From positions 1,472,001 through 1,536,000 of the forward strand of contig OY820591.1 in NCBI GenBank assembly GCA_963555985.3: a DNA stretch of 64,000 nt. The letters are read 5' to 3'. Below, in pieces: positions 9,552 to 53,097 of this stretch. The notes under the pieces are model-generated. The model was not told the origin of the DNA, made no database searches, and saw nothing but the letters and a program-made list of their open reading frames with translations. How positions within the stretch are numbered: position 1 is the first letter of the stretch; each line of letters starts with the position of its first letter. The stretch comes from Dehalococcoidia bacterium (GTDB lineage: Bacteria; Chloroflexota; Dehalococcoidia; Bin125). Made by a program: the position numbers and the translations under genes.

Positions 9552-9628
9552 TGGTGGGCGATACTGGATTTGAACCAGTGACCTCTGCGATGTCAACGCA
9601 GCGCTCTAGCCAACTGAGCTAACCGCCC
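9552..9628 (-). tRNA. tRNA-Val(GAC)
   Basis: GGGCGGTTAGCTCAGTTGG...CTGCG-TTGACAT-CGCAG...GGTTCAAATCC...CGCCCACCA; 77-nt cloverleaf with encoded CCA. Confidence 0.97.
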
Positions 9629-9827
9629 GCGACCGGCCGGCGGTCGAACAGCGATATCGACGATAGAACGGCGACATCGGCATGGCTGACCCTTCCCGCC
9701 CGAAATCGTGAGATGAGCGCGCTTCACTCGATCACGCTCCGCCCAACTGGCGGCGCACAGCGGCGATGCGCAAGCTTCAGGCTAACGGATGGGATTGTCG
9801 GTAATGGCCGTTGGGATTGTTAACCCG

Positions 9828-9856
9828 TTGACGCGCCGATGTGCGTTGGGTAGCTT
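9828..9856 (+). promoter_or_regulatory. Sigma70-type promoter
   Basis: TTGACG-17 nt-TAGCTT; preceded by two TGGGATTGT direct repeats (9790-9798, 9812-9820). Confidence 0.55.
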
Positions 9857-10039
9857 TCGGTGAATACCGACACCCGTCGTGTACGGGCGCACTGCGCGCG
9901 ACGGGTTGAGTTTGGAGAGAGCAGCTTGAGCGGATCGGCTACTCGGTTGATTGCCTCGTCTCCCGCTGCGGAATCCCGGGTGCCGGCACCTGCGTGCGGG
10001 CGTGTAGGCTTGATCTGTGCGGCGACGCGCTCGACACGG

Positions 10040-10115
<76 letters not shown>

Positions 10116-10162
10116 GCTACCCGCGCAGCGATCGTCGCGTCGTAGAAGATCGCCGTCGCAGC

Positions 10163-10247
10163 GGGGAAGTGTCGGAACTGGTAGACGAGCATGACTTAGA
10201 ATCATGTGCCGCAAGGCGTAGGAGTTCGAGTCTCCTCTTCCCCACCA
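10163..10247 (+). tRNA. tRNA-Leu(TAG)
   Basis: GGGGAAG acceptor stem, CATGA-CTTAGAA-TCATG anticodon arm, long variable arm GCCGCAAGGC, CCA end; 85 nt. Confidence 0.95.
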
Positions 10248-16218: not shown

Positions 16219-16486
16219 GGCCGTGCTAGATGGGGAGCTAGCGGTGCCCTGTACCCGCAATCCGCTCTAGCGGGGTTGAATTCCTGCGCTGAGGCCGTAA
16301 CGCATGAGGTCTACCGACGCCAAGCAGTGATGAAGTCTGGGTCCCGCGCGGCGTAGCGCCGTGAACCCCGTCAGGTCCGAGAGGAAGCAGCGGTAAGCGG
16401 TCAGTTGCGGGTGACGCGGGAGTGCCTGGGCGGAGCCGGCTAGCGGAGGCAAGCTCATGGCGGCGTTCGACGGCAGGTGCACGGCC
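16219..16486 (+). ncRNA. ffs: Large bacterial signal recognition particle RNA (Alu plus S domains)
   Basis: 5' GGCCGTGCTAGATGGGGAGCTAGCGGTGCCCTGT Alu-type start; helix-8 motif TCAGGTCCGAGAGGAAGCAGC; terminal helix GGCCGTGC/GCACGGCC. Confidence 0.93.
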
Positions 16487-35251: not shown

Positions 35252-38200
35252 CTACTTCGTCGTCGCCGTCACCGCGATCCGGTAGTGCGATCCAGACTCG
35301 AACCAGCCCACTCCGACGTATTGCAACCGGCCCTTATCCGCGATCGACCAACCGTTGCCTGACGGCGTCAGCGTTGCGGCCGAGCTCGTGAAGGTTGCTA
35401 GGTAGTGGGAGCCGCTGGCCGAGTTGGGGGCCTTGATGTAGACGAAGTAGGTCGTGCTCGCGCTCAGGTCGCAGCCGCTGGAGCAGGTGTAGGTATAGGA
35501 GCCGGCCGTCGAGGGACTGCTGCCGCTCAGCGTGGCCAGCGTCGTGCCCGTGTTGGGGTTCAACCCCGACGCCGCGTGCAGCGTCACCTCGAGGTCGGTC
35601 GGGCTCCCGACGGTCGCACGGAAGGCAATGGCGATGCTGGACAGCGTGTAGCCGCCCGTGTTGCTGCCCGTCGTGAACGCTTGTGCCACCCGTTGTGTCG
35701 GGCTGCCGCCGCCCACATTCACAACACCGTTATCGCCCCCACTCAGGGTGCTCACCGAGACGATGGCCAGCGTCGTAAACTCCGACGCCGACGCCAGCAG
35801 GTTGCCCGACGTACACCCGCTGTCGCTGTAGGCCGAGTAGGTGTACGACGTGCCCGCCGTGAGACCGGTCAGGTTCTTCGTCGTCCCGCTCACGGGGCCG
35901 TCGCAGGTCGCGCCGGTGTTGGTGTGCTTGTAGTACCAGTCGCCGGCGTGATTGGCGATGGTCAGCGTGGCGGTCGTCGCGGCGACGTTCGAGGCGGAGA
36001 GGTAGGGAGCGAGCGTGGCCGATACCCTGAACCTTCCGGTCCAACTCCGGTCTGCCCAGGAGCCGCGGGCTAGCTGCTTCAACCCATTGTCGATGCTCCA
36101 GCCGAAGTGGGCTGTGTTGGTCTCGTCGTCTCCATCCGTCGTATCCCATTTGTAGGCGGGGCCGGAGGTTGACGACAGCACCAGGAAATAGGGCGTATTG
36201 TCCGACAGGTGGCAAGTCCCGGAACAGGCGTAGGTGGCATTCCCGGCTGCGGCCGCGTTGCCGTTGACGTGAGTGAGGGTGTAGGTCGCCGTCGCGGCCG
36301 GGTTGTCGCTCGACGCAGCGTGAATTGCCACGCTGAGGGGGGCTTCGGTAGCCTGACTTGGCGCGAGGAACCCGAGTGTCACGCCTTGCAGCGTGTAGCC
36401 GCCGCTGTTGGTTCCCGTGCGGAATCCGGTTGCCACACTGTTGTTTGCGTTAACATTCTGGCCAAAGGTGTCCGAGGCCTCGCCCAGGTTGCTCACGTTC
36501 GGAATCAGATCAATCAGCGGCGCGCGCATTGCGGTAGCCGACTTGCCCCACTGGTTGGTACTGGTGATCTTGATGTTGTAGGCAGCGCCGTCGTCGACGT
36601 TGTACGTGGTACCGCCGACCGTCCAGCTCGAGATCGTGATGCTGTGCTGCGCGGCGGTGTCGTCCTGGTCGCTCATCGTGGCGCAGCGCGTGTAGGACGA
36701 GCCGGACACGGCGCAGTCGATCTCGTAGCCGGTGGTGTAGAAGTTCGGCTTCCAGGACAGCGTGACCGAGCCGCCGGAGCGGCTATGCGTCAAGTTGCGC
36801 AGTTCTGCGAAGGCCGGGTAGATATTCTCCGACCGCTTCCAGTCGCTGGCATCGGCCGGATCGCTCGTCACTGCGCGGACCGCCACCATGTACTTTCGCG
36901 CACTATGCAAATCGCCTCGCGGCCCGTCGTCCACGGTCAGATTGGTGGCTGAAGTCGTGTTGCCGCACTGCCACCAGGACCAGCCGTCCACGTCGCTGCA
37001 CACCAGGTTGTAGCCGCTCGCGCCCGTCACCGCTGCCCAGCTCACGTGTAGTTTCTCGTCGCGGGCGTTATCGCGCGTGATTGTCCCAAAGGTGGGCGCG
37101 GCGAGCTGGCTTTGGGATTGCGCGGAGGCGATCGAGGCGCCGCCCGAGGACTGGACGGTGTTCAGCCAGTCGGTCGCGGGCATCCGCGCGAGGTCGGTCC
37201 AGGGGCCGCGCACGGCGCCGATCCGGGCGCGCACGCCGACCTCGTCGATGGTCTCGCTGGTGGTGTAGCGGTGGGATGCGCCGGAGACGTTGCTGGCTAC
37301 GTCGTGCCAGGAGGAGCTGCCGGCGGTCCTGGCGCGGATGTCGTAGCCGGTGACGCCGCTGACGGTGAGGGTGTCCCAGAAGATGTCGAGGTAGCCGTCG
37401 CCGGGGGTGACGCTGAGGCCGGTGGGGGCGGCGGGCGCGGTCAGCGCGGGCAGGGTGTCGTGCAGCTTGAGCGCGCCGCCGTTGCGCCAGATTTGCAGGA
37501 TGATGCCGTAGCCGGTACCGGCGTCGAGGCCGGGCGCGGTCACGGGACCGGTGGAGTCGGCGCTCCAGATCGGCGCGCTGGTCCAGACCGTTCCGCTGCA
37601 GGAGGCGCCGTTGTACTGCGAGTCGTTGCAGACGATCACGCGGTAGTACTGGAAGCCGTCGCCGATGTAAGCGCTCCAGGAGACGCTGGCGCTGAGGCCG
37701 TCGTCGGCGCGGGTGGCGGTCAGGCTGAGTTCGTCGTTGTCGATCTCGGTGGCGGTGAAATCGACCTTGCCGGAGTAGTACTCGCGGGCGTCGTGGGTCA
37801 GGTCGCGGGCGCCGTCGGCGTAGTCGTTGTCCTCGGCGGCGACCAGGGTGACGGTCTGGGCGGTGTCCCAGTTGCCGGGGGTGAAGGTGAGTTTGAGCGA
37901 GACGACATCGGCGGCCTCGCCCTGGAAGGTGATGTCGGCGTCGTCGTTGTCGCGCACGGAGAGGCCGATGCAGACTTCGACGTCTTGCGTGGGCTGGAGG
38001 GCGAGCTTGACCTGGTAGCTGACCTGGCCGCCTTCGGGCACGGAGAGGGCGCTGAGGGCGTTGCCGCTCGCGTCCTGGACGATGATGCCGGGCAGGTTGG
38101 GGGTGGCGCTGGCCTGCGTCTCTGCGCCGCCGCCGTGGGCGTTCGCCGCGCGCAGGTAGATGGTGTAGGCGGCGCCGTTGGTCAGCCCGGCGACGAGGTA

Positions 38201-39085
38201 GGCGGTCGTGGTCGCGTCGCTGGCGGGGACGCTCGTCCACGCGCCGCGGCCGCTGCCGGCCTGCTGGAGCGCGTACTCGTAGCCGGTGATCGACGAGTCC
38301 GAGGGGTCGTCCCAGGCGAGGCGAACGCTCTGGTCGCCGGCGATGGCGGTCAGCCCGGTGGGCGCGGACGGCGGCACGGGCGTGGTCGCGGGCGGGGTGT
38401 AGGGACCGCTGGCGGCAGAGTTGACCCAGCCCGACCAGCCGTGCTCGTTGCCGGCGCGCACGCCGACGACGACGGTCTTGGCGTTGTCGACGCTGAACGA
38501 AATGCTGGTCGTCTGGACGTTGCGGTGATCGGGGACGGGCGCCTGCCAGCCCGAGCCGTCGTTGTAGGTGACGTGGTACTTGGTCGCCCCGTCCGGGGCG
38601 TCCCAGGAGGCGGTGGCGCTCCCGTCGGCGCGGGTGATGGAGACGCTGCTGACGGAGCCGGGCGGGTTGGCGGGCGGAGAGTCGGGCGGGGTGTAAGGGC
38701 CGCTGGCGGGGGAGTTGACCCAGCCGCTCCAACCGTGCGCGTTGCCGGCGCGGACGCCGACGACGACGGTCTTGGCATTGTCGACGCTGAACGAAATGCT
38801 GGTGGTCTGGACGTTGCGGTGGTCGGGGACGGGCGCCTGCCAGCCGCTGCCGTCGTTGTAGGTGACGTGGTACTTGGTCGCGCCGCTGGGCGCGTCCCAG
38901 GAGGCGGTGACGGTTCCGTCGGCGCGGGTCAGGTTGACGGAGGTGACGTTGCCGGGTGGGGAGGTGAGATCACTTCCACCATCGGCAAGGGAGTTGGCGA
39001 TGGTCGCCAGCGCCGCCAGTCCGGCGAGTAGCGCAACGGCCGCCAGCGCCAGTCTCCGCCGATTCCAATGTCTTGAGATAGTCAT
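35252..39085 (-). CDS. Large secreted fibronectin type III repeat protein with two C-terminal beta-sandwich domains
   Basis: Signal peptide RRRLALAAVALLAGLAA; several FN3 units (APTGLTAIAGDQSVRLAWDDP...ITGYEY...GLTNG..Y...RAAN); two related domains with A..F.TG.N.GGYTL. Confidence 0.88.
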   Translation of the reverse strand: MTISRHWNRRRLALAAVALLAGLAALATIANSLADGGSDLTSPPGNVTSVNLTRADGTVTASWDAPSGATKYHVTYNDGSGWQAPVPDHRNVQTTSISFSVDNAKTVVVGVRAGNAHGWSGWVNSPASGPYTPPDSPPANPPGSVSSVSITRADGSATASWDAPDGATKYHVTYNDGSGWQAPVPDHRNVQTTSISFSVDNAKTVVVGVRAGNEHGWSGWVNSAASGPYTPPATTPVPPSAPTGLTAIAGDQSVRLAWDDPSDSSITGYEYALQQAGSGRGAWTSVPASDATTTAYLVAGLTNGAAYTIYLRAANAHGGGAETQASATPNLPGIIVQDASGNALSALSVPEGGQVSYQVKLALQPTQDVEVCIGLSVRDNDDADITFQGEAADVVSLKLTFTPGNWDTAQTVTLVAAEDNDYADGARDLTHDAREYYSGKVDFTATEIDNDELSLTATRADDGLSASVSWSAYIGDGFQYYRVIVCNDSQYNGASCSGTVWTSAPIWSADSTGPVTAPGLDAGTGYGIILQIWRNGGALKLHDTLPALTAPAAPTGLSVTPGDGYLDIFWDTLTVSGVTGYDIRARTAGSSSWHDVASNVSGASHRYTTSETIDEVGVRARIGAVRGPWTDLARMPATDWLNTVQSSGGASIASAQSQSQLAAPTFGTITRDNARDEKLHVSWAAVTGASGYNLVCSDVDGWSWWQCGNTTSATNLTVDDGPRGDLHSARKYMVAVRAVTSDPADASDWKRSENIYPAFAELRNLTHSRSGGSVTLSWKPNFYTTGYEIDCAVSGSSYTRCATMSDQDDTAAQHSITISSWTVGGTTYNVDDGAAYNIKITSTNQWGKSATAMRAPLIDLIPNVSNLGEASDTFGQNVNANNSVATGFRTGTNSGGYTLQGVTLGFLAPSQATEAPLSVAIHAASSDNPAATATYTLTHVNGNAAAAGNATYACSGTCHLSDNTPYFLVLSSTSGPAYKWDTTDGDDETNTAHFGWSIDNGLKQLARGSWADRSWTGRFRVSATLAPYLSASNVAATTATLTIANHAGDWYYKHTNTGATCDGPVSGTTKNLTGLTAGTSYTYSAYSDSGCTSGNLLASASEFTTLAIVSVSTLSGGDNGVVNVGGGSPTQRVAQAFTTGSNTGGYTLSSIAIAFRATVGSPTDLEVTLHAASGLNPNTGTTLATLSGSSPSTAGSYTYTCSSGCDLSASTTYFVYIKAPNSASGSHYLATFTSSAATLTPSGNGWSIADKGRLQYVGVGWFESGSHYRIAVTATTK
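38390..38956 (-). repeat. Intragenic tandem duplication (294-bp period) of an FN3-like domain
   Basis: 38390-38662 and 38684-38956 nearly identical (ATKYHVTYNDGSGWQAPVPDHRNVQTTSISFSVDNAKTVVVGVRAGN twice). Confidence 0.92.
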
Positions 39086-39156
39086 AGATTTCCCACCTCT
39101 CGTCACTTGAATGATCCGATATCCAATCTATCACAATCCACACCTCTCTCCGCCTA

Positions 39157-40060: not shown

Positions 40061-40630
40061 CTAGTCGTCCTGCGCCGACGCCCAACGAAAGTAATGGTCG
40101 AATGCGCAGACCGTCAGCGCGTGCGTGATCGTCTTGTCGTTCATCATCTCCGCGATCTCGCTCAAGGGACGAGTCTCGACCTCAATCGCCTCACTCGATG
40201 TCCCCACCACATGGTCCTCATCAACCACGCGGGTCACGTTGAGCGCCAGAAACGACCAACAGCGGTTCTCTTGCAGCGCCGGATTGGGATGCACCCAGCC
40301 CAGTTCGATCGCGTCTTCGGCCTGGTAACCGGACTCTTCAAACAGCTCCCGCAGCGCCGCCTCCTTCGGCGACTCGCCCGGATCCACGATTCCGCCCGGA
40401 ATTTCGAGCGTCAACTCGCGCGTCCCGTGTCGGAACTGCTTCACGAAGATCACGTCGCCCTCGGGCGTCACCGGCAGGATGTTCACCCAGTCGGGAAACT
40501 CAAACACGAAAAAGCGATGTTCCCTACCCGATCGCGGATGCCGCGAGATGTCCTTGCGCAGCGCGAAAAAGCCGTAGTCCTCAAGCGTCTCCGAGGACAG
40601 TCGCCGCCAGTCGTCTATTCGCTCGGACAT
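40061..40630 (-). CDS. NUDIX hydrolase (ADP-ribose pyrophosphatase-like)
   Basis: Nudix box PGGIVDPGESPKEAALRELFEESG; QFRHG. Confidence 0.92.
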   Translation of the reverse strand: MSERIDDWRRLSSETLEDYGFFALRKDISRHPRSGREHRFFVFEFPDWVNILPVTPEGDVIFVKQFRHGTRELTLEIPGGIVDPGESPKEAALRELFEESGYQAEDAIELGWVHPNPALQENRCWSFLALNVTRVVDEDHVVGTSSEAIEVETRPLSEIAEMMNDKTITHALTVCAFDHYFRWASAQDD

Positions 40631-40641
40631 CTTGTCGCGCC

Positions 40642-41469
40642 TTATGTCGCCGCGTTGATGATCTTGGCGTACGTCTCGATCCGCAGGAAATCGTCCAATC
40701 CCGCGTCCTCAAGCTGCGCGCCCAGATTCTCGATCAGCGTCGCCTTGTAGCCGTCCACATCGATCCCCAGTTCCGCAACGTCCGCCTTGATCCGGCGCAG
40801 ACCCAAGGCAACCGCTCCCGCAAGCAGCAGCTGGCTCTGCCAGACATACATTCGCCCCGCCGGCGAGAGCCGCTCCACCAGCCGGGGCAGAATCGTATGC
40901 AGGAAATTCACATGCCGCACCTCGTCGCGCAGGATCAGCCGGAAGATCTGCTTGGCCAGCGGATCCACGTCGTCGAGCTCCAGCGTCTGCTGCAAGAACA
41001 GCGCCGCGAAATTCTCGCTGAACAGCGTTGAGGTCAACCAATTCTCAACCCGGTACAGACCCCAAGACGCCATCCCCCCGAAACGCTCGATCAGAAACTG
41101 CTCCGGCTTCGACAGATACCCATGCCCGCCCACTTCGGTCAGGTAGCGGTCGAGCGCGTAGACATGCCGCGCCTCGTCCTGGCATTGCGCCGCGAGATAG
41201 AGGTTGAGCGCCGGGTCTCGAAGCTGATGCGTCGCCTGGCTCATCATCACCTGGATCGTGTCGAGACCCATCACCTCAAGGCCCAGGAACACGTTCATCA
41301 TCCGCAGCCAGGCGGCGCGTTTCGCTGGCGGAATTTCCGAGCCCGCGCCCCAGTCCACGTCTCGGTCCGCGTTCCAGAGCCGGTCCCCCTGCTGCCGGAA
41401 GAGCGTGCGGAAGACGTCGACCTGTTCCGGGCTCTGCGGGCGTCGAACCGCATTCGGTGATCTGCGCAT
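40642..41469 (-). CDS. Ferritin-like diiron protein (AurF/desaturase-like class)
   Basis: Two E...DExRH sets (LEVM/CQDEARH; SENF/RDEVRH) and N-terminal WNADRDVDW. Confidence 0.8.
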   Translation of the reverse strand: MRRSPNAVRRPQSPEQVDVFRTLFRQQGDRLWNADRDVDWGAGSEIPPAKRAAWLRMMNVFLGLEVMGLDTIQVMMSQATHQLRDPALNLYLAAQCQDEARHVYALDRYLTEVGGHGYLSKPEQFLIERFGGMASWGLYRVENWLTSTLFSENFAALFLQQTLELDDVDPLAKQIFRLILRDEVRHVNFLHTILPRLVERLSPAGRMYVWQSQLLLAGAVALGLRRIKADVAELGIDVDGYKATLIENLGAQLEDAGLDDFLRIETYAKIINAAT

Positions 41470-41564
41470 AGACGACCTGCCTCGCGCAGAGCATATCGGC
41501 ATCACCCCAACCCGCGTGCGCCTCCAACCTGCGGGTGAACGAGCTGGGATCGTATACTGACGCC

Positions 41565-44441: not shown

Positions 44442-45599
44442 ATGAGCGATTACGACCAGCGCGCGATCGAGATGCATCGAGAGTGGGGCGGCAAGGTCGA
44501 CTACGCATCGAAAGTGACCGTACGCGACCACGACGACCTCAGCGTCGTCTACACGCCCGGCGTCGCCGCCCCCTGCATGGAAATCCACCGAGACCCTTCG
44601 CTTGCCCGAGTGATGACCGGAGTCGGCAACCTGGTCGCTGTGATCACAGACGGTTCCGCCGTCCTCGGTCTCGGCGACATTGGCCCGCAAGCGGCCCTAC
44701 CGGTGATGGAGGGCAAATGCGTGCTCTTCCGCGAGTTCGCCGGTGTTGACGCCATCCCGATCGCCCTGGCCGTCCGCGAAGTCGACGACATCGTGGCCGC
44801 GATCGAGGCGATCGCGCCCTCCCTGGGCGGCATCAACCTCGAAGACATCTCCGCCCCCCGCTGCTTCGAGATCGAGCGCCGACTCCACGAGTCGCTTTCG
44901 ATCCCCGTCATGCACGACGACCAGCACGGGACTGCCGTGGTCGCGTTGGCCGGCGTGATCAACGCGCTCCGCCTCACCAACCGCGATTTCAAGGACATCC
45001 GCACCGTCGTGCTTGGCGCTGGCGCCAGCGGCATCGCCTGTTCCGCAATCCTGCGCGAGATGGGCTGCGAAGACATCTCCCTGATCGACTCCAAAGGCCT
45101 CCTCACGGTCGACCGCGAAGACCTCAACCCCTGGAAGCGCGAAGCCGCCGAGTGGTTCCCCCACAACAACAACCCCGACGGCGGCATTCCCCAGACCTCA
45201 CAGGTGATGCGCGGAGCCGACCTCTTCCTCGGTCTCGCCGGACCTGGCTTGGTCACCGTCGCCGACGTCGCCTCGATGAACGAAAACGCGATGGTCTTCG
45301 CCATGGCCAACCCCACGCCGGAGATCATGCCCGACGAGGCGGCTGAAGCCGGCGCCGCGATCGTGGCCACCGGGCGCTCCGACTTCGCCAATCAGATCAA
45401 CAACGCGCTTGGCTTCCCGGGCATGTTCCGCGGCCTGCTCGACGGCGGCATCCCCAAGATCGAAGACGAGCACAAGATCGCAGCCGCCCAAGCGATTGCC
45501 GACTTCGTCGAAGAACCGACCCCCGACCGGATCGTGCCGAGCATCTTTGAGGAAGGCCTCGCCTACAAGGTCGCCGAAGCGGTCCAAGCAGCCGGTTAG
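44442..45599 (+). CDS. NAD(P)-dependent malic enzyme (short form, no PTA domain)
   Basis: YTPGVA, DGSAVLGLGDIG, PVMEGK, NLEDISAPRCF, HDDQHGTA, GAGASG, ANPTPE, TGRSDF.NQINN. Confidence 0.95.
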   Translation: MSDYDQRAIEMHREWGGKVDYASKVTVRDHDDLSVVYTPGVAAPCMEIHRDPSLARVMTGVGNLVAVITDGSAVLGLGDIGPQAALPVMEGKCVLFREFAGVDAIPIALAVREVDDIVAAIEAIAPSLGGINLEDISAPRCFEIERRLHESLSIPVMHDDQHGTAVVALAGVINALRLTNRDFKDIRTVVLGAGASGIACSAILREMGCEDISLIDSKGLLTVDREDLNPWKREAAEWFPHNNNPDGGIPQTSQVMRGADLFLGLAGPGLVTVADVASMNENAMVFAMANPTPEIMPDEAAEAGAAIVATGRSDFANQINNALGFPGMFRGLLDGGIPKIEDEHKIAAAQAIADFVEEPTPDRIVPSIFEEGLAYKVAEAVQAAG

Positions 45600-46570
45600 C
45601 ACTCACTCGCGCTGCCGCCGTACACGTCCAGCGCCTGCGCCAAGGCCGCCCGCGCCCCGAACAACGGCGCGTAGCCGACAGTCACCCGCACCCGGCTGTC
45701 GTCGATCAGGTGCGGACGGCTCGTGAAGCTCACGTAGGAATCAACTCCCGCCGGCGCCGGCAGCGCCCAGTCCGCCAGTCCAACCACGTCCAGCGTCTGA
45801 GCCAACACAGCCGGGGCGCGCCAAAACCGCGGCTCAACGCCCCTGAGCCGGCACGCCTCCACCACCAGTTCGCGCCAGGTCGTATGCGTCGAGGCCACAT
45901 GAAAGACGTTCCCGATCGCTTCCTCACCTTGGTTCAGCAGCGCCCAGACCGCACGCCCCAAGTCGGCCGCAGCCAGAATCGAGATCGGCGCATCGCCGCC
46001 CCGAACCAGCCCGCCGCGCGGGTGGGCGATAAAGTGGCGCAGCACCGTGACCAGCCTGCCACCGCCCCGGCTCAGCACCGGTGCAGGTCGCACGATCGTC
46101 AGCGGTGTCTGCCTCCGATAGGTCCGCGCCGCTCGCTCCGCTTCGACCCGACTCTGCAACGCAGCCCCAATCGGCTGCGGCGTCCAGCTCTCACTCACGG
46201 GCCAGGGCGGCATTCGAGCGCCGTACGCCTCGGTCGTGGAGATGAACAGGAACTGCTCCAGATCACGATGTCTGCACGCATCGAGCAGCGCGGTCGTCGC
46301 GTGCAGGTTGACAGCCGCGTACTCGGAGGGAGCATGACCAATCTCACTCAGCGCGCGGGCGTGCACGACATGGGTTGCATCGGCCAGCGCCTCAGCCAGC
46401 GCCCCTGGTGTATCCCCGTTGAACGTCACGCGGCGTGCGTGCGCTGCCTCCGCCGGCAGCGGCTCGGATTCATCATCCAGGAGCAGCGTCAGCTCCACCT
46501 CCTGCCGCACGAGCTCGCGAAGAATGTCGCGTCCCGGCGTTTGCGCCGCCCCGGTCAGTACGATCCGCAT
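45596..46570 (-). CDS. Extended SDR / NAD-dependent epimerase-like protein with degenerate motifs
   Basis: MRIVLTGAAQTPG, VVHARA, VNLHAT..LL, FISTTEAYG, IVRPAPV; lacks the intact GxxGxxG and YxxxK. Confidence 0.75.
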   Translation of the reverse strand: MRIVLTGAAQTPGRDILRELVRQEVELTLLLDDESEPLPAEAAHARRVTFNGDTPGALAEALADATHVVHARALSEIGHAPSEYAAVNLHATTALLDACRHRDLEQFLFISTTEAYGARMPPWPVSESWTPQPIGAALQSRVEAERAARTYRRQTPLTIVRPAPVLSRGGGRLVTVLRHFIAHPRGGLVRGGDAPISILAAADLGRAVWALLNQGEEAIGNVFHVASTHTTWRELVVEACRLRGVEPRFWRAPAVLAQTLDVVGLADWALPAPAGVDSYVSFTSRPHLIDDSRVRVTVGYAPLFGARAALAQALDVYGGSASEC

Positions 46571-46653
46571 GAGTGGATCGTATCGTCGCGCCGCGCCCGG
46601 CCAGTCCGGCTGATGTGCGTCGAAACGCCGATCAAAACCGGAGAGGAACCCCA

Positions 46654-47442
46654 ATGCCAACGCTCTCGCGCCCTCAATGCGAGCTCTACTACGAGGTCAG
46701 CGGCGACGGTCCAGCCCTCGTCTTCGCTCACGGCGCGGGCGGCAACCACCTCTCCTGGTGGCAGCAGGTTCCGGTCTTCAATACGGCCTATCGTTGCATC
46801 GTCTTCGATCACCGAGGCTGGGGACGCAGCGTCGAATCGCCGGGCGGCCCCGGCCCAGCCGCATTCGTCGACGATTTGCTCGCCTTGCTCGATGCGCTGG
46901 AGATTGAGCAAACGGCGCTGGTTGCCCAGTCGATGGGTGGGCGCACCTGTCTGGGCCTCAGCCTGCGCGCTCCCGAGCGAGTCTCCGCGCTCATCATGGC
47001 GGACACCACCGGAGGTTTCCTCACCGATGCAATGCGCCCGCCGTTCGAGCAGGCCCGCGCCCGACTGCGAGAAGAAGGACTAGCCAGCCTCGCCTATCAC
47101 CCAAACTTGCGCGAACGCGATCCGGCCCTCGCCTTCCTCTACGACGAGATCATGGCCCTCAACCCTCCGCGAGACCCAAGCGCGCTGAACGCCCTCAACC
47201 GCGCCGCTCCGGACCCCGATCAGGTCGCCGCACTCGAGCCTCCAGTGCTCTGGATCGTCGGCGGCGACGACGCAATTCTGCCCCCGGCCGTCGTGCGCGG
47301 GGCGCACGCGCACGTCTCAGGCTCGGAGTACTTCGAATTACCCGGCACGGGCCATTCGGTCTACTTCGAACGAGCAGCAGAATTCAATGCTCGCGTTGGC
47401 AAATTCCTCGCCGATGCCGCTTGGGGAACGGGAATCATCTAG
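46654..47442 (+). CDS. Alpha/beta hydrolase
   Basis: FAHGAGG, DHRGWGRS, AQSMGG, GGDD, GHSVYFE. Confidence 0.92.
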   Translation: MPTLSRPQCELYYEVSGDGPALVFAHGAGGNHLSWWQQVPVFNTAYRCIVFDHRGWGRSVESPGGPGPAAFVDDLLALLDALEIEQTALVAQSMGGRTCLGLSLRAPERVSALIMADTTGGFLTDAMRPPFEQARARLREEGLASLAYHPNLRERDPALAFLYDEIMALNPPRDPSALNALNRAAPDPDQVAALEPPVLWIVGGDDAILPPAVVRGAHAHVSGSEYFELPGTGHSVYFERAAEFNARVGKFLADAAWGTGII

Positions 47443-48791
47443 TCGATTGGCGACCAGACAAGAGCGACCGTGTCCTCCAGCGCGGACTCCTGATACGACA
47501 ACGACGTATCCCAGAGCATGAATCCTGCGCCTCCGGTCTCGGCGGCGGCGACGATCTGCGCGCGAACCCGCTCTGCGTCGTAGTAGAGACCCTGCGCGCC
47601 ATAGTCATGGAAATCCTGGAGCCACGGCCGCACCTGTACCACCCCATACGGCGCGCTGCGCTCCACGGTCGCCTTCATGCTCTCTCGGATCACGATCGCC
47701 GGGTACGCGGGTGGATAGTCGAGATCAAAGTTCCCAGTCGCCCAACCGCTGGGATAGAGCATCGGTGAAACGTAGTCGAGGTACGGGGCAATCCCAGACA
47801 GCGACTGTCCAATCCCTTCGTCAAACGAGCTGATGGATACCTGTCCAAAGGTGTCGAACGAGAGCGCCGCGCCGGCGAGATGAATCGCCTCACTCGCCTC
47901 TCGCGCGAACGCGTTGATGGCGGCGACACGTTCCGCCTCGGTCCCGCGGCCCCGAACGTCCTGATACGGGAATCGTACGTAGTCGTACTGAATCTCCTCG
48001 AAGTACTGCGCTGCGGCCACGCCGATCTCGACGTTGTACGTTCGTGCCGCCGCCGTGTGCGGATTCGACCAGCCGTTGCCGTAGCTGTCCAAGAACCGCG
48101 CCCCGCTGTGCGAATAGAGCGATGCCGTCGGCAGCCAGCTCGGGTATACGCTGTCGAGGAACGTCACCACGCGCCCGATGCGGTAGACGCCCTTGCGCTG
48201 GAGCGTCTCCAGAAACTCGGCGATGTTGGCGCTGTTCCAGGTCGCTCTCATCGCGCGCACGGTATCCGTAGCCGCGAAATCGAAGACGACGCCGTATTCG
48301 TTCTTCACATCGACCACGACCGAGTTGATCAAGCCGCGGTCGACCAAATCGATCACCCACCGCTGCACCCTCAGATCCAGCGCGGACTCAAACGGAATGT
48401 GAATGCCGCGGACGATCAGGTTGTGCAGGATCACGACCACGTTGTCGCGATAGACGGGACGTTCGATCACGCTGTAACCGGGACGTACGATCGAAACCCG
48501 TCCGGTCCGGCTGTGCGGCTCGAAGCTGAAGCGGCCGGACCGGTCGGTTCGTGTCAGAGCGAGGCCGGTTGACACATGTGCGTCGCTAACCGGCCGCAGC
48601 CGACCGTTGCGCCAGACGTAGATGCGCCCACTCAACGAGGTAGTGGCGTTGATCGATTCGCTCGCAGGTTCATCAGCCCGAGTGGTCGTCGGCCATGCAG
48701 CGGCGAGCGCCGTGGCGGCAACGACGCCAATGAGCAGCACCCCGAAAACGAATTGACGAGCGCGAGGCCGACTGAGCAGGAGCGCGTTCAT
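47439..48791 (-). CDS. Secreted putative glycoside hydrolase (DUF4015-like TIM barrel) with N-terminal carboxypeptidase-regulatory-like domain
   Basis: Signal/TM; NSVVVDVKNEYG, FEEIQYDYVRFP, GIGQ, DYVSPMLYPS, RPWLQDF, GFMLW. Confidence 0.82.
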   Translation of the reverse strand: MNALLLSRPRARQFVFGVLLIGVVAATALAAAWPTTTRADEPASESINATTSLSGRIYVWRNGRLRPVSDAHVSTGLALTRTDRSGRFSFEPHSRTGRVSIVRPGYSVIERPVYRDNVVVILHNLIVRGIHIPFESALDLRVQRWVIDLVDRGLINSVVVDVKNEYGVVFDFAATDTVRAMRATWNSANIAEFLETLQRKGVYRIGRVVTFLDSVYPSWLPTASLYSHSGARFLDSYGNGWSNPHTAAARTYNVEIGVAAAQYFEEIQYDYVRFPYQDVRGRGTEAERVAAINAFAREASEAIHLAGAALSFDTFGQVSISSFDEGIGQSLSGIAPYLDYVSPMLYPSGWATGNFDLDYPPAYPAIVIRESMKATVERSAPYGVVQVRPWLQDFHDYGAQGLYYDAERVRAQIVAAAETGGAGFMLWDTSLSYQESALEDTVALVWSPID

Positions 48792-48847
48792 TGGTCGCAA
48801 CTCTCGTAACCGGCTACACCGGTTATGTCTAGCCTAATCGCCCTGGC

Positions 48848-49222
48848 CTATCTGGTCAGGTCTTGTCCCTCACTTTCGGCTACCTCCTTCAGGTTTTGCA
48901 ACCCCTGCCCCGCCGCCGCGACAATTGCGTTGCTTCCTTTACCAAACAGAAACAAATTGCTCAGGCTCCAGCGCAGACCGAAAGGCCGCAGCTCGTCGAT
49001 GATCGAACACCCTTCCTCGTGTGCGACTCGCTGCAATCTGTATGCATGGCGGACATGGAACATGAAGCCCATCCGGACGTCGATGACGAGCGAGCGAGGC
49101 CGCTCCTCCGCAACCAGCACAACACGCCCGTTGTCGATCCCGAGCTGAGCCTCCTCGCGCAACAGCCGCCAAACCGTCGTGATCGGCGCGCCGATCTCTA
49201 GCTGTTCGGTCGCATCGCTCAT
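48848..49222 (-). CDS. SRPBCC/START-like (polyketide cyclase-type) small protein
   Basis: IGAPITTVWRLL start and C-terminal helix GLQNLKEVAE typical of SRPBCC; ATGA overlap with the HAD gene. Confidence 0.6.
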   Translation of the reverse strand: MSDATEQLEIGAPITTVWRLLREEAQLGIDNGRVVLVAEERPRSLVIDVRMGFMFHVRHAYRLQRVAHEEGCSIIDELRPFGLRWSLSNLFLFGKGSNAIVAAAGQGLQNLKEVAESEGQDLTR

Positions 49223-49812
49223 AGACGTTCGTTGCCTCGCTCTAGCCCGCCCAGCGCAGCCGCGAGCTTATCCATGTCGTCGTACCGCATGACCCCGCGC
49301 GGGAAATCGAGCCCCCGGTTGCGCGGCCAGTCCAGCAAGGCGACAGGAATGTCGTTGCGTGCGAGCAATGCGGCAGTCGCAGCATCGTCATCCGCGTGAA
49401 GCGCCACCGCTCGCTCAGCCAACGCTGCCTCTTTGTATCGGGCCGAGCCGAGCGGTCCGCCGTTCATGATCAGTTCGTCCAGGTACGGACTGAATCCATG
49501 CCGCTCTAACCAGGCCTGAGTTTGACCACGCCCTCGTTCATGACGACCAGTCAGAACGATGACGGAGTGAGCTCGCGCCGCTGCACGAACCGCGTCCAGC
49601 GCCCCGCGACGGGGGGGTCTGAGGAGGTATCGCACGCGGTACCAAGTCCATGTGAGCAAATGCCCGATCCAGTTGTCCGCCGCGAAGTCGTCGCTACTCG
49701 CGCGTTGGGCGCTCGTCTGCAACGAAACATCCCGATTGATCGCAGGATTCCAGCCAAACGGCGGATCCGCGAGCACGCCGTCAAGATCGAATGAGATGAT
49801 CGGCAGCGCCAT
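49219..49812 (-). CDS. HAD-superfamily phosphatase (5'-nucleotidase/LNS2-lipin-like)
   Basis: FDLDGVL, LTGR, YK, ADDD motifs I-IV. Confidence 0.78.
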   Translation of the reverse strand: MALPIISFDLDGVLADPPFGWNPAINRDVSLQTSAQRASSDDFAADNWIGHLLTWTWYRVRYLLRPPRRGALDAVRAAARAHSVIVLTGRHERGRGQTQAWLERHGFSPYLDELIMNGGPLGSARYKEAALAERAVALHADDDAATAALLARNDIPVALLDWPRNRGLDFPRGVMRYDDMDKLAAALGGLERGNERL

Positions 49813-49838
49813 CGCTAGTCCTGACAGAGCGACCCGTC

Positions 49839-50825
49839 TTAGGCCCAGCCGTGTTCGCGGTACCAACGCATCGTCGCCCCCATGCCTTCTTCCAGACTTG
49901 TCGTCGGTCGCCAACCCGTGTCGCTAGTCAACGAGGACGAATCGCACAACCACGCGCGTTGGCGCATTTCGATTACTCGCGCCCGGTCGAGCGTAGGCTC
50001 AATTCCGCGGAGCATCGCCCAAGCCTCGGAGACGCGGGCAAAAGCGTGAAACACGCTGGGAGGCAACGATGGAATCAGCAGACGCCGCCCGGTGACCCGC
50101 TCGAGCGTGTTTAGCAAGTCATTCCAGGTGTGCGGACCTCCGTCGCCGCTCGCGTGATAGCGGACAAACGATTGCCCAGGCGCGCTCAACACGGCAGCGA
50201 TTGCCTCAGCCAAGTCCGGGCCGTAGATCGCGTCAACCAGATTCTTGCCGTCTCCCAGCCGCGCCGAGATTCCCCAGCGCGCCAACCGGAAGAAGATCAC
50301 GAGACCCGTATCGGCCGGACCAAAGACCATCGGCGGCCGAATCACAGTGATCTGCAATCCGCGATCAATCTCCTCAAGCGCAGCCTCGCCCGCCGCTTTC
50401 GAGCGACCGTAGGGCGAAACCGGATGTAGAGGCGTCTCGGGCGGCTCTGGCGCATAGCTCGGGGCCGGACCTTGGGCGGCGATCGAGGAAATGTAGATAA
50501 ATCGACTCACCCCCGCACTGGCGGCGGCGTCGGCGAGATTCCGCGTTCCCTCGCCGTTTGCGCGCATGAAGGCATCCTGGCGGACAGCGCGCAGCACCGC
50601 CGCTGCGTGGACGACCGCCTCAACGCCCTCACAAGCCGCCCGAAGTGAGTCTTCATCAGTGAGATCACCAGCGGCGCACTCGTAGGGAACCGCCGGCGTG
50701 GCGTCGATAAAGCTCGTGTCGCTTGTTGGCCGCACGAGCAGACGCAGATCGTGCCCGTGTGCGTGTAATGCGCGCGCGACATGTCCGCCGACGAATCCGC
50801 TGCCGCCGGTCAGAAGTACGCGCAT
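49839..50825 (-). CDS. NAD-dependent epimerase/dehydratase; candidate ceramide/3-ketosphinganine reductase (CerR-like)
   Basis: TGGSGFVG, SSIAA, SPYGRSKAAGE, RPPMVFGPAD; starts 14 bp after the Spt-like gene. Confidence 0.8.
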   Translation of the reverse strand: MRVLLTGGSGFVGGHVARALHAHGHDLRLLVRPTSDTSFIDATPAVPYECAAGDLTDEDSLRAACEGVEAVVHAAAVLRAVRQDAFMRANGEGTRNLADAAASAGVSRFIYISSIAAQGPAPSYAPEPPETPLHPVSPYGRSKAAGEAALEEIDRGLQITVIRPPMVFGPADTGLVIFFRLARWGISARLGDGKNLVDAIYGPDLAEAIAAVLSAPGQSFVRYHASGDGGPHTWNDLLNTLERVTGRRLLIPSLPPSVFHAFARVSEAWAMLRGIEPTLDRARVIEMRQRAWLCDSSSLTSDTGWRPTTSLEEGMGATMRWYREHGWA

Positions 50826-50839
50826 CGCTCGGTTCCGCT

Positions 50840-52126
50840 TCAGTTGATCAGTCTGTGACGGCGACCGGCGTCCGCGAAAATCTCCAGCGCGCGGTCTAAC
50901 TGCTCGTCGGTATGGGTGGCGATGTATGAGGTGCGCAAGATCGCCTGTCCCCTCGGCACGGCAGGCGCGATCACGGCATTCGTGTAGACCCCGTGATCGA
51001 GCAAGTCTTTCCAGAATGCGGCGGTGAGCACCTCGTCGCCCACCCGGATCGGGATGATTGGCGTCTGCGAGTTCGCAATGTCAAACCCGAGCGCTGCAAG
51101 TTCGCGGCGCATCCGCGCCCCGTTCTCCTGCACCCGCTTCACCCGCCACGGTTCTTCGTCGATCAGTTGGAGCGCCGCTAGCGCCGCCGCCGCCGAAGCC
51201 GGCGGCAGCGCCGCCGTGAACAACATCGGACGCGAGAAATGACGGATGTACTCAATCACGATCCGAGGCCCCCCGCAGAAGCCGCCCACCGAGGCGAGCG
51301 TCTTGCTGAACGTGCCGATCGTCAGATCATCAGGCTCCTCCAGGCCGAAGTGAGAGCGCGTTCCGCGCCCGGTCGCTCCGACCGTGCCGATCGCGTGCGC
51401 GTCGTCGACGAGCATCCGCGTGTTGTGCTTCCGGCACACCTCGCGCAGATCGGGCAGGGGCGCCAGATCGCCGCCCATCGAGTATGCGCCGTCAATGATC
51501 ACGAGACGGGCTTGCTCCGGATCGAGGTTGCTCAGCACGCGGTCGAGATGCACCGGATCATTGTGCTGGAAGCGCACGTACTTCCCCAGCGCGAGCCCAG
51601 CTGCGTCGTAGATCGAAGCGTGAACATCCCGGTCAAGTACGGAGACGCCGTGACGGTCCACCAACGCCGACACAGCCCCGAGATTCGCTAGATAGCCCGT
51701 AGAGAACACGATCGCCGCCTCGGACCCGAGAAAGTCCGCCAGCGCCTCCTCCAGTTCCAGGTGGATTGGACTGGTCCCGTTCAACAGCCGCGATCCGGTC
51801 ATTGACGGGCCCCAGCGCCCAAGCGCATCCTGAGCGGCGGCGAGCACATTCGGGTGCCGCGTAAGACCGAGATAGTTGTTCGAGCCGAGCATGATCACAC
51901 GCTGCCCGTCGACGATCGCCTCTGGGCCGTCGTTCACTTCAATCGGCTTGAAGAAGGGATACAGGCCCGCCGCCCGCGCCTGATCAGCGAGCTGAAAATG
52001 CGCGATTCGCGCGAAGATGTCGGGCGAACGCGCGTCCCGTTGACGTCCGTCCATCTCATCCATGCGCAGACCCGCAGCCTCCGCAAGAGCGGTCAATGAC
52101 GGTGTATCCGATTGGCTCTGCGTCAT
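50840..52126 (-). CDS. spt: PLP-dependent alpha-oxoamine synthase, most like serine palmitoyltransferase
   Basis: GLYPFFKPI, LGSNNYLGL, GSRLLNGT..H..LE, HASIYD, DDAH, GTFSKT, RPMLFTAALPP, GVYTN....PAVP. Confidence 0.72.
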   Translation of the reverse strand: MTQSQSDTPSLTALAEAAGLRMDEMDGRQRDARSPDIFARIAHFQLADQARAAGLYPFFKPIEVNDGPEAIVDGQRVIMLGSNNYLGLTRHPNVLAAAQDALGRWGPSMTGSRLLNGTSPIHLELEEALADFLGSEAAIVFSTGYLANLGAVSALVDRHGVSVLDRDVHASIYDAAGLALGKYVRFQHNDPVHLDRVLSNLDPEQARLVIIDGAYSMGGDLAPLPDLREVCRKHNTRMLVDDAHAIGTVGATGRGTRSHFGLEEPDDLTIGTFSKTLASVGGFCGGPRIVIEYIRHFSRPMLFTAALPPASAAAALAALQLIDEEPWRVKRVQENGARMRRELAALGFDIANSQTPIIPIRVGDEVLTAAFWKDLLDHGVYTNAVIAPAVPRGQAILRTSYIATHTDEQLDRALEIFADAGRRHRLIN

Positions 52127-52293
52127 TGCTGTGGAGCCTCCAGTGGGGACGGCCGGAAATCTGCGCGCTGCTTCGTCATGCGAGTGTAAGCGACTTTAGG
52201 CGACGCTCGTTCCTCATATGCAAATCGACCGCAACGTGCGAGTCATATGGCAGAGTGAGGGCGGCGTACCGGGGCTCGGGTTTGGTGGACTCG

Positions 52294-53097
52294 ATGCGGA
52301 TTGACCTCAAGTCCGCCGCGATGCTTGCGGCGACCGCGTTTGCGCTCCTGATCGTCTTCGGCGCTGTTTGGCCCGGGCATGGCGTCTGGTTGCTCGCCCT
52401 GGCCTTGGTGCTCTGTGCCGCCGCTGCCGTCCTCTGGCTTCGAGAGACGCAGGCGGAGAGTGCGTCGCAAGGAGTGCCAACCGCTCACTTTTCGCCATTC
52501 GCAGACGCGGTGGCGTACTCCAGAAGCGCTAATCGTCCGCCGAGCTTTTCGCGATCGCACGCCCTAACGCCCGCACGAGGGATTCCGCTGGCAGCGCTTG
52601 TCGCCGCAATCGGGGCGGTAGCGCTAGTCCTCTATGTCGGCGGCGCAACTGCCGGGAGTGGAGAGGCCGCGCAGCAGGCGATGACTCTTGGCTCGGACGT
52701 CGAAGTCATCGATCGCCACTCCACAGATTTCGGAACCGGCAGCACTCAAACGGGAACCGGAGACCCCGGCTCGAACAGCGAAGTGAGCAGCGAGACGGCC
52801 ACGGCCCCGTTACGCCCAATCGTGGTCGAAGATCCCAGCGGTACGACCCCATTGAGCCAACGCGGCGGACAGTTCGCCACAACCGCAGAGTCCACTAGAA
52901 CGGACGATGAATCCGCAGCCGGAACACTGACGCCCGATCCGGATACGTTCACCTACATCGTCGAGTCCGGGGACACGCTCTGGGACATCGCTACTCGATT
53001 CGACCTCGATGTGTCTGTGCTCATCGACCTGAATGGTCTCTCCAACGCCGATCTACAGATTGGCGACGAACTGGAGATCCCGGAACCGGCGGATTAG
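52294..53097 (+). CDS. Membrane protein with C-terminal LysM domain
   Basis: Three TM segments; YIVESGDTLWDIATRFDL....LIDLNGL..ADLQIGDELEIP. Confidence 0.85.
   Translation: MRIDLKSAAMLAATAFALLIVFGAVWPGHGVWLLALALVLCAAAAVLWLRETQAESASQGVPTAHFSPFADAVAYSRSANRPPSFSRSHALTPARGIPLAALVAAIGAVALVLYVGGATAGSGEAAQQAMTLGSDVEVIDRHSTDFGTGSTQTGTGDPGSNSEVSSETATAPLRPIVVEDPSGTTPLSQRGGQFATTAESTRTDDESAAGTLTPDPDTFTYIVESGDTLWDIATRFDLDVSVLIDLNGLSNADLQIGDELEIPEPAD

Follow-up and report, generated by a model that had tools for sequence, protein, structure and literature searches.

The spt-bcerS-cerR ceramide genes of the Caulobacter type are reportedly the subject of work by Stankeviciute et al. (2022). Genes of this kind are also described in the accessible portions of three reports (PMC11087976, PMC11324152, PMC11334938), and the accessible text of one of them gives Spt-like proteins for 218 metagenome-assembled genomes (MAGs) of Chloroflexota (Ding et al., ISME J 2024, PMC11334938). 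Here, we analyzed a cluster of five genes on the minus strand at positions 47439..52126 of a 64-kb stretch of DNA (called the window for simplicity) from a Dehalococcoidia bacterium (assembly GCA_963555985.3, contig OY820591.1, positions 1,472,001 to 1,536,000), in which the gene of an Spt-like alpha-oxoamine synthase (AOS) is directly followed by that of a CerR-like reductase. In our judgment these two genes probably represent the conserved core of bacterial sphingoid-base synthesis in a cluster from which the ceramide synthase has gone and in which accessory genes follow. Homology, phylogeny and the conserved pairing give good support to the occurrence of a putative Spt-like enzyme together with its reductase in a genome of Chloroflexota, and the closest genomes, labelled Chloroflexota/Dehalococcoidia, agree with the host phylum proposed in the first-pass annotation of this DNA. 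Spt-like genes of Chloroflexota are already in print, and the core idea is less unusual than that annotation assumed.

The first gene encodes the AOS (428 residues, 50840..52126; Pfam Aminotran_1_2, E 2e-59) and has a GGAGG about 10 nt 5' of its ATG. It is followed by a CerR-like reductase of the extended short-chain dehydrogenase/reductase (SDR) type (328 residues, 49839..50825; Pfam Epimerase, E 4e-37, and also 3Beta_HSD) and by a HAD-like (NT5C-like) putative phosphatase, recognized by motifs and fold (197 residues from ATG, 49219..49812; the longest open reading frame (ORF) begins at TTG 49914 and would overlap the SDR gene). The fourth gene encodes a small SRPBCC-like protein (124 residues, 48848..49222) and the fifth a DUF4015 putative glycoside hydrolase (450 residues from ATG, 47439..48791, with an alternative TTG start at 48800; PF13200, E 6e-73). 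In the order from the AOS to the DUF4015 gene, the first two gaps measure 14 nt and 26 nt, the next two genes share the 4 nt of an ATGA in which stop and start overlap, and the last gap measures 56 nt (47 nt with the TTG as start). Direct reading of the sequence thus reproduced the five co-oriented genes with the coordinates and spacings first given for them. As to the family labels they had been given, those of the AOS, the reductase and DUF4015 are upheld by Pfam and the HAD label by four motifs and the fold, whereas the SRPBCC label, taken from a predicted fold, is weakly supported.

One scan of 185,579 species genomes with the window's AOS yielded 80 related loci. Four Chloroflexota/Dehalococcoidia MAGs (L001-L004) carry an enzyme 86-87% identical to that of the window and three further Chloroflexota one that is 56-58% identical; the other AOS loci (43-53%) belong to Myxococcota, Nitrospirota, Gemmatimonadota, Acidobacteriota, Fibrobacterota, Actinomycetota, Spirochaetota, Dictyoglomota and Bacillota. 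Ranked by NCBIfam, the window's AOS scores highest with the Spt model NF047600 (432 bits), followed by Spt NF047599 (399), bioF (365), the BioF/Kbl subfamily model TIGR01825 (354) and Kbl (340). Each of the 18 relatives scanned likewise matches NF047600 best, and none of them reaches an NCBIfam Spt cut-off. The ranking against the PDB is led by the SPT of S. multivorum (351 bits), with the Sphingomonas SPTs (291-294 bits) and a broad-specificity AOS of Thermus (292 bits) behind it; Kbl (233 bits), cysteate acyltransferases (206-212 bits), BioF (205 bits) and CqsA (121 bits) are lower matches.

A maximum-likelihood tree of 50 rows combines the window with 11 references from annotated plasmid and E. 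coli records and with 38 of the 80 loci (42 loci were left out), picked so that each clade of an 83-row quick tree is represented. The non-Spt references were three Kbl, three BioF and one HemA; the Spt references were proteins that pass an NCBIfam cut-off, characterised Spt being represented by the PDB ranking and not in the tree. Of these Spt references, that of P. distasonis passes NF047600 (683.8 bits, cut-off 640) and that of R. mucosa passes NF047599 (612.7 bits, cut-off 500). The window's AOS falls into a 43-row clade (ultrafast bootstrap 100, Shimodaira-Hasegawa-like approximate likelihood-ratio test (SH-aLRT) 99) that holds both Spt references, while all seven Kbl, BioF and HemA references lie outside it. 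Within that clade, the window, L001 and L004 (100/100) are sister to L005-L007 (100/97), and both groups belong to a 12-row clade (100/99) that also takes in Polyangiaceae and Sorangium. The stem leading to the window's AOS is long (0.67-0.77 changes per column). The claim that the enzyme resembles Spt more than BioF or Kbl is therefore borne out by the tree, the NCBIfam ranking and the PDB ranking, and the phylogeny suggested as a check on it places the AOS with Spt and not with BioF/Kbl.

The motifs YPFF, GSRLLNGT and GTFSK, put forward earlier as marks of Spt, are all present in the AOS. In a table of 21 rows, the form GSR[LFI]xNGT was found in 11 of 14 Spt-like rows (the other three have NGS or TGT) and in none of the seven Kbl/BioF/HemA references, which sustains this motif as a mark; GTFSK, by contrast, also occurs in one of the three BioF references. 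Residues N83, G111, S112, H169, S216, D241, H244, T272, S274 and K275 align with active-site residues of S. multivorum SPT, whose roles are given in the accessible part of PMC10196870: K275, H169, D241, H244 and S216 correspond in the alignment to Lys244, His138, Asp210, His213 and Ser185, and T272, N83 and G111-S112 to Thr241, Asn52 and Gly80-Ser81. The protein is thus predicted to be a fold-type I AOS dependent on pyridoxal 5'-phosphate (PLP), with the catalytic lysine and the PLP-binding residues. A residue-level test of serine specificity was considered and rejected, since the contacts in S. multivorum SPT are mediated by backbone, water or the PLP phosphate and are common to other AOS; the accessible literature names no sequence feature that sets the choice of serine or of chain length.

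The second gene product is an extended SDR by its motifs: GGSGFVG (residues 7-13) is the glycine motif of NAD(P) binding, and S113/S114 and Y139xxxK143 make up the Ser-Tyr-Lys triad. Its nearest NCBIfam model is HpnA (153 bits, cut-off 368). By BLASTP it matches the SDR that occupies the place of cerR, after the acyl-AMP ligase gene, in the sphingolipid cluster of R. mucosa with 98 bits (29% identity over 332 residues, E 7e-28), and the SDRs of AOS-GNAT-SDR clusters with 168-229 bits; its own paralogue at 45596-46660 is distant (35 bits). The SDR tree mirrors the AOS tree, and the two genes have therefore travelled together. Neighbor counts (see below), BLASTP scores and mirrored trees together support, as had been anticipated, the placement of this reductase in a family found alongside spt and bcerS in many phyla.

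These comparisons bear on the proposal that the pair is of a housekeeping type, i.e. a Kbl/BioF-type AOS whose partner is an SDR-type threonine dehydrogenase, with a function in threonine catabolism or biotin synthesis. Arrangements in which Kbl is followed by an NAD-dependent epimerase-family gene do exist, for example on an Agrobacterium plasmid, homologues of the AOS are named '8-amino-7-oxononanoate synthase' in the database, and the score of the AOS with the bioF model comes near the cut-off of 426 bits. However, the Kbl clade (100/100) excludes the window, and the window's clade stands apart from BioF at 100/99. The reductase reaches 50 bits with the Kbl-adjacent SDR of Agrobacterium as compared with 98-229 bits for Spt-linked SDRs, and an engineered SDR-type threonine dehydrogenase in the PDB gives 39.8 bits, the best PDB match 124.5 bits. 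By sequence, the reductase is not of the Kbl-linked threonine dehydrogenase type. Neither bioA, bioB or bioD nor a zinc-type tdh was found in the window (Pfam on 56 of 60 greedily called ORFs), in agreement with what the first-pass annotation had noticed about the surroundings of the cluster. We hold this proposal to be highly improbable.

Neighboring genes in the 80 loci were counted by clustering and then again by tblastn, because greedy ORF calling on high-GC loci gave antisense artefacts (family F4); the counts cover the locus stretches examined. A CerR-like SDR homologous to that of the window is found in 27 of the 80 loci from many phyla, or in 26 once L038 is discounted, whose SDR was rejected as an unrelated long branch located 5 kb away on the other strand. 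A GNAT-domain protein of about 380 residues is present in 26 loci and occurs together with the SDR in 20, the usual orders being AOS-GNAT-SDR or SDR-AOS-GNAT. This GNAT family appears to be bCerS-like, with 37.6% identity over the full length to a gene located about 10 kb from spt in the plasmid sphingolipid cluster of R. mucosa. That cluster also carries an acyl carrier protein (ACP), an acyl-AMP ligase, an SDR, LptF/G paralogues and a diacylglycerol-kinase-family gene, and its layout matches the one given for Caulobacter in the accessible part of PMC11324152. In 13 loci there is a PAP2 protein weakly similar to phosphoinositol-dihydroceramide synthase. A classic SDR of 260 residues, which among NCBIfam models scores highest with the 3-ketodihydrosphingosine reductase KdsR (235 bits, cut-off 400), occurs in 23 loci, mostly of Bacillota/Clostridia (e.g. 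L015, L017, L023, L027, L035, L043, L048 and L049); it usually lies directly downstream of the AOS, and these loci have neither a CerR-like nor a GNAT gene in the vicinity.

In the window and in L001-L005 the AOS gene is followed immediately by the SDR gene, and no GNAT homologue was found in L001-L005 within the stretches examined. The order AOS-GNAT-SDR is seen in L006, L007 and a plasmid of Rubrobacter radiotolerans. The GNAT is present on both sides of the window's clade in the tree, so that its loss or relocation in the window's lineage is the simplest reading. A protein-database search with the GNAT of L007, which is blind to diverged copies, gave 120 listed matches that are all at least 63% identical and come from another clade. 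Among the database matches, some fall on contigs of equal length: AOS and GNAT in the 55-60% clade (lengths 172406, 793867, 7368 and 10209), and AOS and the HAD-like protein in the window's own clade (19615, 2459283, 2002712 and 30752).

Relocation would be compatible with a complete ceramide pathway that is merely split, with bCerS encoded elsewhere as in Bacteroidota and with the HAD-like, SRPBCC-like and DUF4015 genes as bystanders. Gene order would then be all that sets the cluster apart from described ones. The genome measures about 3.1 Mb, of which the window takes in 64 kb, and the relatives on both sides of its clade have the GNAT. According to the accessible text of PMC11334938, many Spt-like genes lack a co-localised bCerS or CerR gene (e.g. 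co-localisation in 0 of 33 Cloacimonadota MAGs), and those of Bacteroidota are unlinked. Against a bystander role of the HAD-like gene speak its coupling with the SRPBCC-like gene, its tight spacing after the SDR gene and the database ORF P0251 described below. We consider a split pathway a serious possibility, albeit on the unlikely side.

The HAD-like protein has no Pfam or NCBIfam match of its own. In an alignment of 30 homologues D9, D11, K127 and D142 are invariant and D143 is nearly so, while T88 is invariant in the 5-row clade alignment only. An AlphaFold2 (AF2) model with a predicted local distance difference test score (pLDDT) of 89.8 retrieved 170 Foldseek matches from the PDB at E<=1e-3, with HAD hydrolases at the top ranks listed. 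Motifs I-IV (DxD, T/S, K, DD) and the predicted Rossmannoid fold thus point to the HAD superfamily. Among the 30 homologues, eight match NT5C and six LNS2. The family is rare, with 126 representatives at E<=1e-3 among 1.84 billion. At E<=1e-5 there are 182 database clusters, the best 120 of which are all at least 58% identical, and the six names shown are all Chloroflexota/Chloroflexi MAGs. Both the HAD-like and the SRPBCC-like families are rare and largely confined to the window's clade. P0251 is a database ORF of 433 residues in which an SDR part, 43% identical to residues 94-292 of the window's SDR and equivalent to the C-terminal two-thirds of a CerR-like SDR, is followed by a HAD-like part that is 43% identical to residues 4-132 of the window's HAD-like protein. 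It may be a true fusion or a read-through or frameshift of adjacent genes. Adjacency and P0251 are the only ties of the HAD-like and SRPBCC-like genes to lipids, P0251 being the sole wider link.

For the SRPBCC-like protein, too, there is no Pfam or NCBIfam match. Its AF2 model reached a pLDDT of 79.8 from a five-sequence alignment, two of the five models being near 42. The Foldseek matches listed from the PDB are all Bet v1/START/SRPBCC folds (PYL/RCAR, CalU16, ZhuI and CoxG) with weak scores (E about 1e-3, template-modelling score 0.35-0.67), one of them reaching E<=1e-3, and a language-model atlas likewise gives an SRPBCC lead. With 124 residues the protein is shorter than typical members (130-190 residues among the fold matches). 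The label is plausible, not firm. The start of the gene overlaps the stop of the HAD-like gene also in L001, L002, L003 and L004 (by 8 nt), and a complex prediction for the two proteins, with a score of 0.00 against a mark of 0.32, is uninformative about their interaction.

The DUF4015 protein matches PF13200 over the full profile (246.1 bits, cut-off 27; positions 1-313 of 313) and has a hydrophobic N-terminal stretch; its sole PDB relative is the uncharacterised 4s1a. The gene is kept only in L001-L004. No terminator-like site was detected in the 56-nt gap between it and the SRPBCC-like gene. DUF4015 is found fused to the YkyA domain, as polysaccharide deacetylases are (accessible part of PMC12700454), and no lipid or sphingolipid link of DUF4015 was found in the accessible literature, among PDB relatives or in synteny. 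Its membership in the unit is doubtful. The idea that the HAD-like, SRPBCC-like and DUF4015 proteins serve head-group editing or transport, which the first-pass annotation had advanced, is thus left unsupported: the genes are kept only in the window's own clade, the relatives of the HAD-like protein are NT5C-like, and DUF4015 shows no such link.

All five genes and their flanks are syntenic in the four related Chloroflexota genomes L001-L004. Conservation of the neighborhood, suggested as a check, is thereby observed, but unrelated flanking genes (LipA, LipB, AceE and others) are kept there as well, and the synteny of the downstream genes in these genomes is uninformative about a role in the pathway. 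Identity of the AOS in L001-L004 is like that of AceE (84-85%); the neighbors of the AOS show 50-69%. In L002 (10266-10634) and L003 (10266-10626), about 365 nt separate the SDR and HAD-like genes as compared with 26 nt in the window, and the sole ORF called in this spacer has 81-86 residues. A scan of 47000-52600 gave no promoter-like sites and two terminator-like sites, both within coding sequence and fewer than in shuffles, and is uninformative on the limits of the operon. In an Rfam scan of the window no riboswitch or other RNA was found close to the cluster.

A number of observations weigh against assigning the first two genes to sphingoid-base synthesis. The AOS stays below all three NCBIfam Spt cut-offs (NF047600, 432 of 640 bits; NF047599, 399 of 500; NF047603, 324 of 670) and scores lower with NF047600 than any other of the 19 clade members scanned (432 vs 445-588 bits). 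Its conserved active-site residues are common to all AOS including Kbl and BioF and are silent on a preference for serine or for chain length, and its C-terminal loop (PAVPRGQAILR) is closer to that of Kbl (PVVPKGQARIR) than to that of Bacteroidota Spt. The accessible literature yielded no biochemically tested Spt-like enzyme from Chloroflexota. Neither a bCerS-like GNAT (tblastn with 18 GNAT queries, E<=1e-3) nor an ACP or acyl-ACP synthetase (Pfam scan) was detected in the window, the absence of bCerS and ACP being as already noticed on first inspection. The nearest named relatives of the HAD-like protein are NT5C-type nucleotidases and not lipid phosphatases, and the three downstream genes are syntenic only among genomes close enough to retain unrelated flanks. 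Finally, one model, as set out in the accessible part of PMC11087976, places CerR after bCerS, on an N-acylated substrate, and the window's reductase would therefore be without substrate unless bCerS is encoded elsewhere. In a contrasting model, CerR acts before bCerS (accessible part of PMC11324152).

Several of these points would fit an Spt-like enzyme with another substrate, be it alanine or glycine (giving 1-deoxy bases), cysteate (giving sulfonolipid-type bases) or, in place of a long acyl chain, a short one (with a signalling amino-ketone as product). In that case no classical sphingoid base would be made. By Spt-model score no other clade member is as divergent as the AOS of the window, which sits on a long stem; the conserved residues leave the choice of substrate unfixed, S. 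multivorum SPT itself accepts Ala and Gly, albeit poorly (accessible part of PMC10196870), and the loss of bCerS together with new neighbors would fit an altered product. On the other hand, the PDB scores for cysteate acyltransferases are far lower than that for SPT (206-212 vs 351 bits) and those of the CqsA type lower still (121 bits), and the CerR-like partner has been kept and shows co-evolution with the AOS, which is what a long-chain 3-keto amine would predict. Altogether, a different substrate seems to us quite unlikely.

In the reading that we favor, the core of sphingoid-base synthesis, the AOS would join a long-chain acyl thioester and an amino acid (L-serine being the most likely one) in a condensation that yields a 3-keto long-chain base, as family membership suggests. 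The adjacent cytoplasmic CerR-like SDR would then reduce the 3-keto group, which homology and the conserved pairing make plausible. The bCerS-like GNAT is gone from its usual place between AOS and SDR in the window's clade, where a gap of 14 nt is left; N-acylation, if any, would be carried out by an unlinked enzyme, and otherwise the pathway may end in a long-chain base that is free or carries some other modification. The HAD-like phosphatase and the SRPBCC-fold protein, whose genes are translationally coupled, probably act on or carry a product of the pair, as their adjacency suggests, and the DUF4015 hydrolase most likely has no relation to the pair and is a cell-envelope enzyme encoded downstream by chance.

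A stronger version holds that bCerS is absent from the whole genome in this clade and that long-chain bases, free or in phosphorylated form, are made in place of ceramides, that the CerR-like enzyme works directly on the 3-keto base and that the HAD-like and SRPBCC-fold proteins form a new module that dephosphorylates and/or carries the base. We regard this version as unlikely; if it were true, the locus would encode a bacterial sphingoid-base pathway without the N-acylation step. If bCerS is encoded elsewhere in the genome, the locus would be an ordinary rearranged sphingolipid locus. Were the pair active, an abundant uncultured clade of Chloroflexota, represented in database searches by many related protein clusters and megabase contigs, would join the bacterial sphingolipid producers. 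The clade would offer a test case for the disputed question of whether a CerR-type reductase must have an N-acylated substrate, because its reductase gene has remained next to that of Spt whereas the gene of the acyltransferase is no longer part of the cluster. Both rare accessory genes are candidates for proteins that handle long-chain bases.

Downstream of the DUF4015 gene lie a convergent alpha/beta hydrolase gene (46573-47442, plus strand) and a second extended SDR gene (45596-46660, minus strand), both kept in L001-L004. On the other side, a divergently oriented gene encodes a LysM-domain protein (52096-53097); the AOS gene, on the opposite strand, has its first 31 nt in common with the longest ORF of this gene, whose true start is therefore probably further inside the ORF. 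Cell-envelope genes, those of the LysM-domain protein and of DUF4015, are thus found on both sides of the cluster. The remaining genes of the window are housekeeping genes (PheT, IF3, AccB/AccC, ThrRS, LepA, KsgA, a GHMP-family kinase and a helicase/exonuclease protein), and the window also encodes a pyruvate dehydrogenase complex with LipA/LipB as well as FolP. Further features are three tRNAs (Val-GAC, Lys-CTT and Leu-TAG; 9552-10247), a large-type bacterial signal recognition particle RNA (16221-16484; RF01854, 173.6 bits), a protein of 1284 residues with fibronectin type III repeats (35252-39106) and the gene of an AurF-like diiron oxygenase adjoining that of a NUDIX hydrolase (40061-41505).

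Some of the other loci are of interest in their own right. In a Chloroflexota MAG (L079, 2570-7264), a glycosyltransferase resembling monogalactosyldiacylglycerol synthase (PF06925, E 6e-15) replaces the GNAT between the Spt-like AOS and the CerR-like SDR, and a GT4 glycosyltransferase gene lies just downstream on the opposite strand; this layout hints at a glycosylated long-chain-base lipid. Plasmid 1 of Rubrobacter radiotolerans (L090, 3923-7290) carries genes for an AOS, a hypothetical protein that is 45% identical to the bCerS-like GNAT of L013, an NAD(P)-dependent oxidoreductase and then a lipoteichoic-acid-synthase-family protein. As a cultured actinobacterium, R. radiotolerans is a tractable organism for the AOS-GNAT-SDR cluster type. 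The E. coli gene yghO ('protein YghO') encodes a full-length homologue of the bCerS-like GNAT (35% identity) and is located about 3-4 kb from an AOS gene whose product is 40% identical to that of the window. Records with a YghO-type gene and an AOS are NZ_MG591698.1, NZ_OL790696.1 and NZ_CP141089.1 (E. coli), LT599585.1 and NZ_CP106839.1; in the last of these, from Klebsiella michiganensis, an acyl carrier protein gene adjoins the AOS gene.

Compared with the described systems, the cluster is closest to the Caulobacter type in that an Spt-like AOS gene stands directly beside a CerR-like SDR gene, a pairing that recurs across phyla, and both genes are homologous to those of the alphaproteobacterial R. 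mucosa cluster. It differs from the Caulobacter type in that a bCerS-like GNAT is missing from the window and HAD-like and SRPBCC-like genes follow instead, and from Rhodobacteria, as represented by the R. mucosa cluster, in that the window holds no ACP or acyl-ACP synthetase. Furthermore, the window's SDR begins directly with the Rossmann motif, whereas CerR of Caulobacter is reported to be periplasmic in the accessible part of PMC11087976. The 'clade B' Spt-like proteins of Chloroflexota MAGs (accessible part of PMC11334938) come from the same phylum and were argued for in the same way, by phylogeny and co-localised CerR and bCerS genes; that report highlights Anaerolineae. L006, L007 and the Rubrobacter plasmid share the AOS (56-58% identity in L006 and L007, 45% in L090) and the SDR (36-41%) with the window and have the order AOS-GNAT-SDR, yet none of them carries HAD-like or SRPBCC-like genes (L090 by its annotation table). 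With NT5C-type HAD 5'(3')-deoxyribonucleotidases and LNS2 (lipin/Nir2-type) HAD domains, the HAD-like protein has all four HAD motifs as well as the fold in common, but it matches no Pfam model itself and belongs to a rare family that is found mostly in Chloroflexota. A limited search of the accessible literature, which covered few subscription journals, found no description of an Spt-CerR cluster that lacks bCerS and continues with HAD-like and SRPBCC-like genes. The layout is real, and the locus is a modest variant of a known system and not a new pathway.

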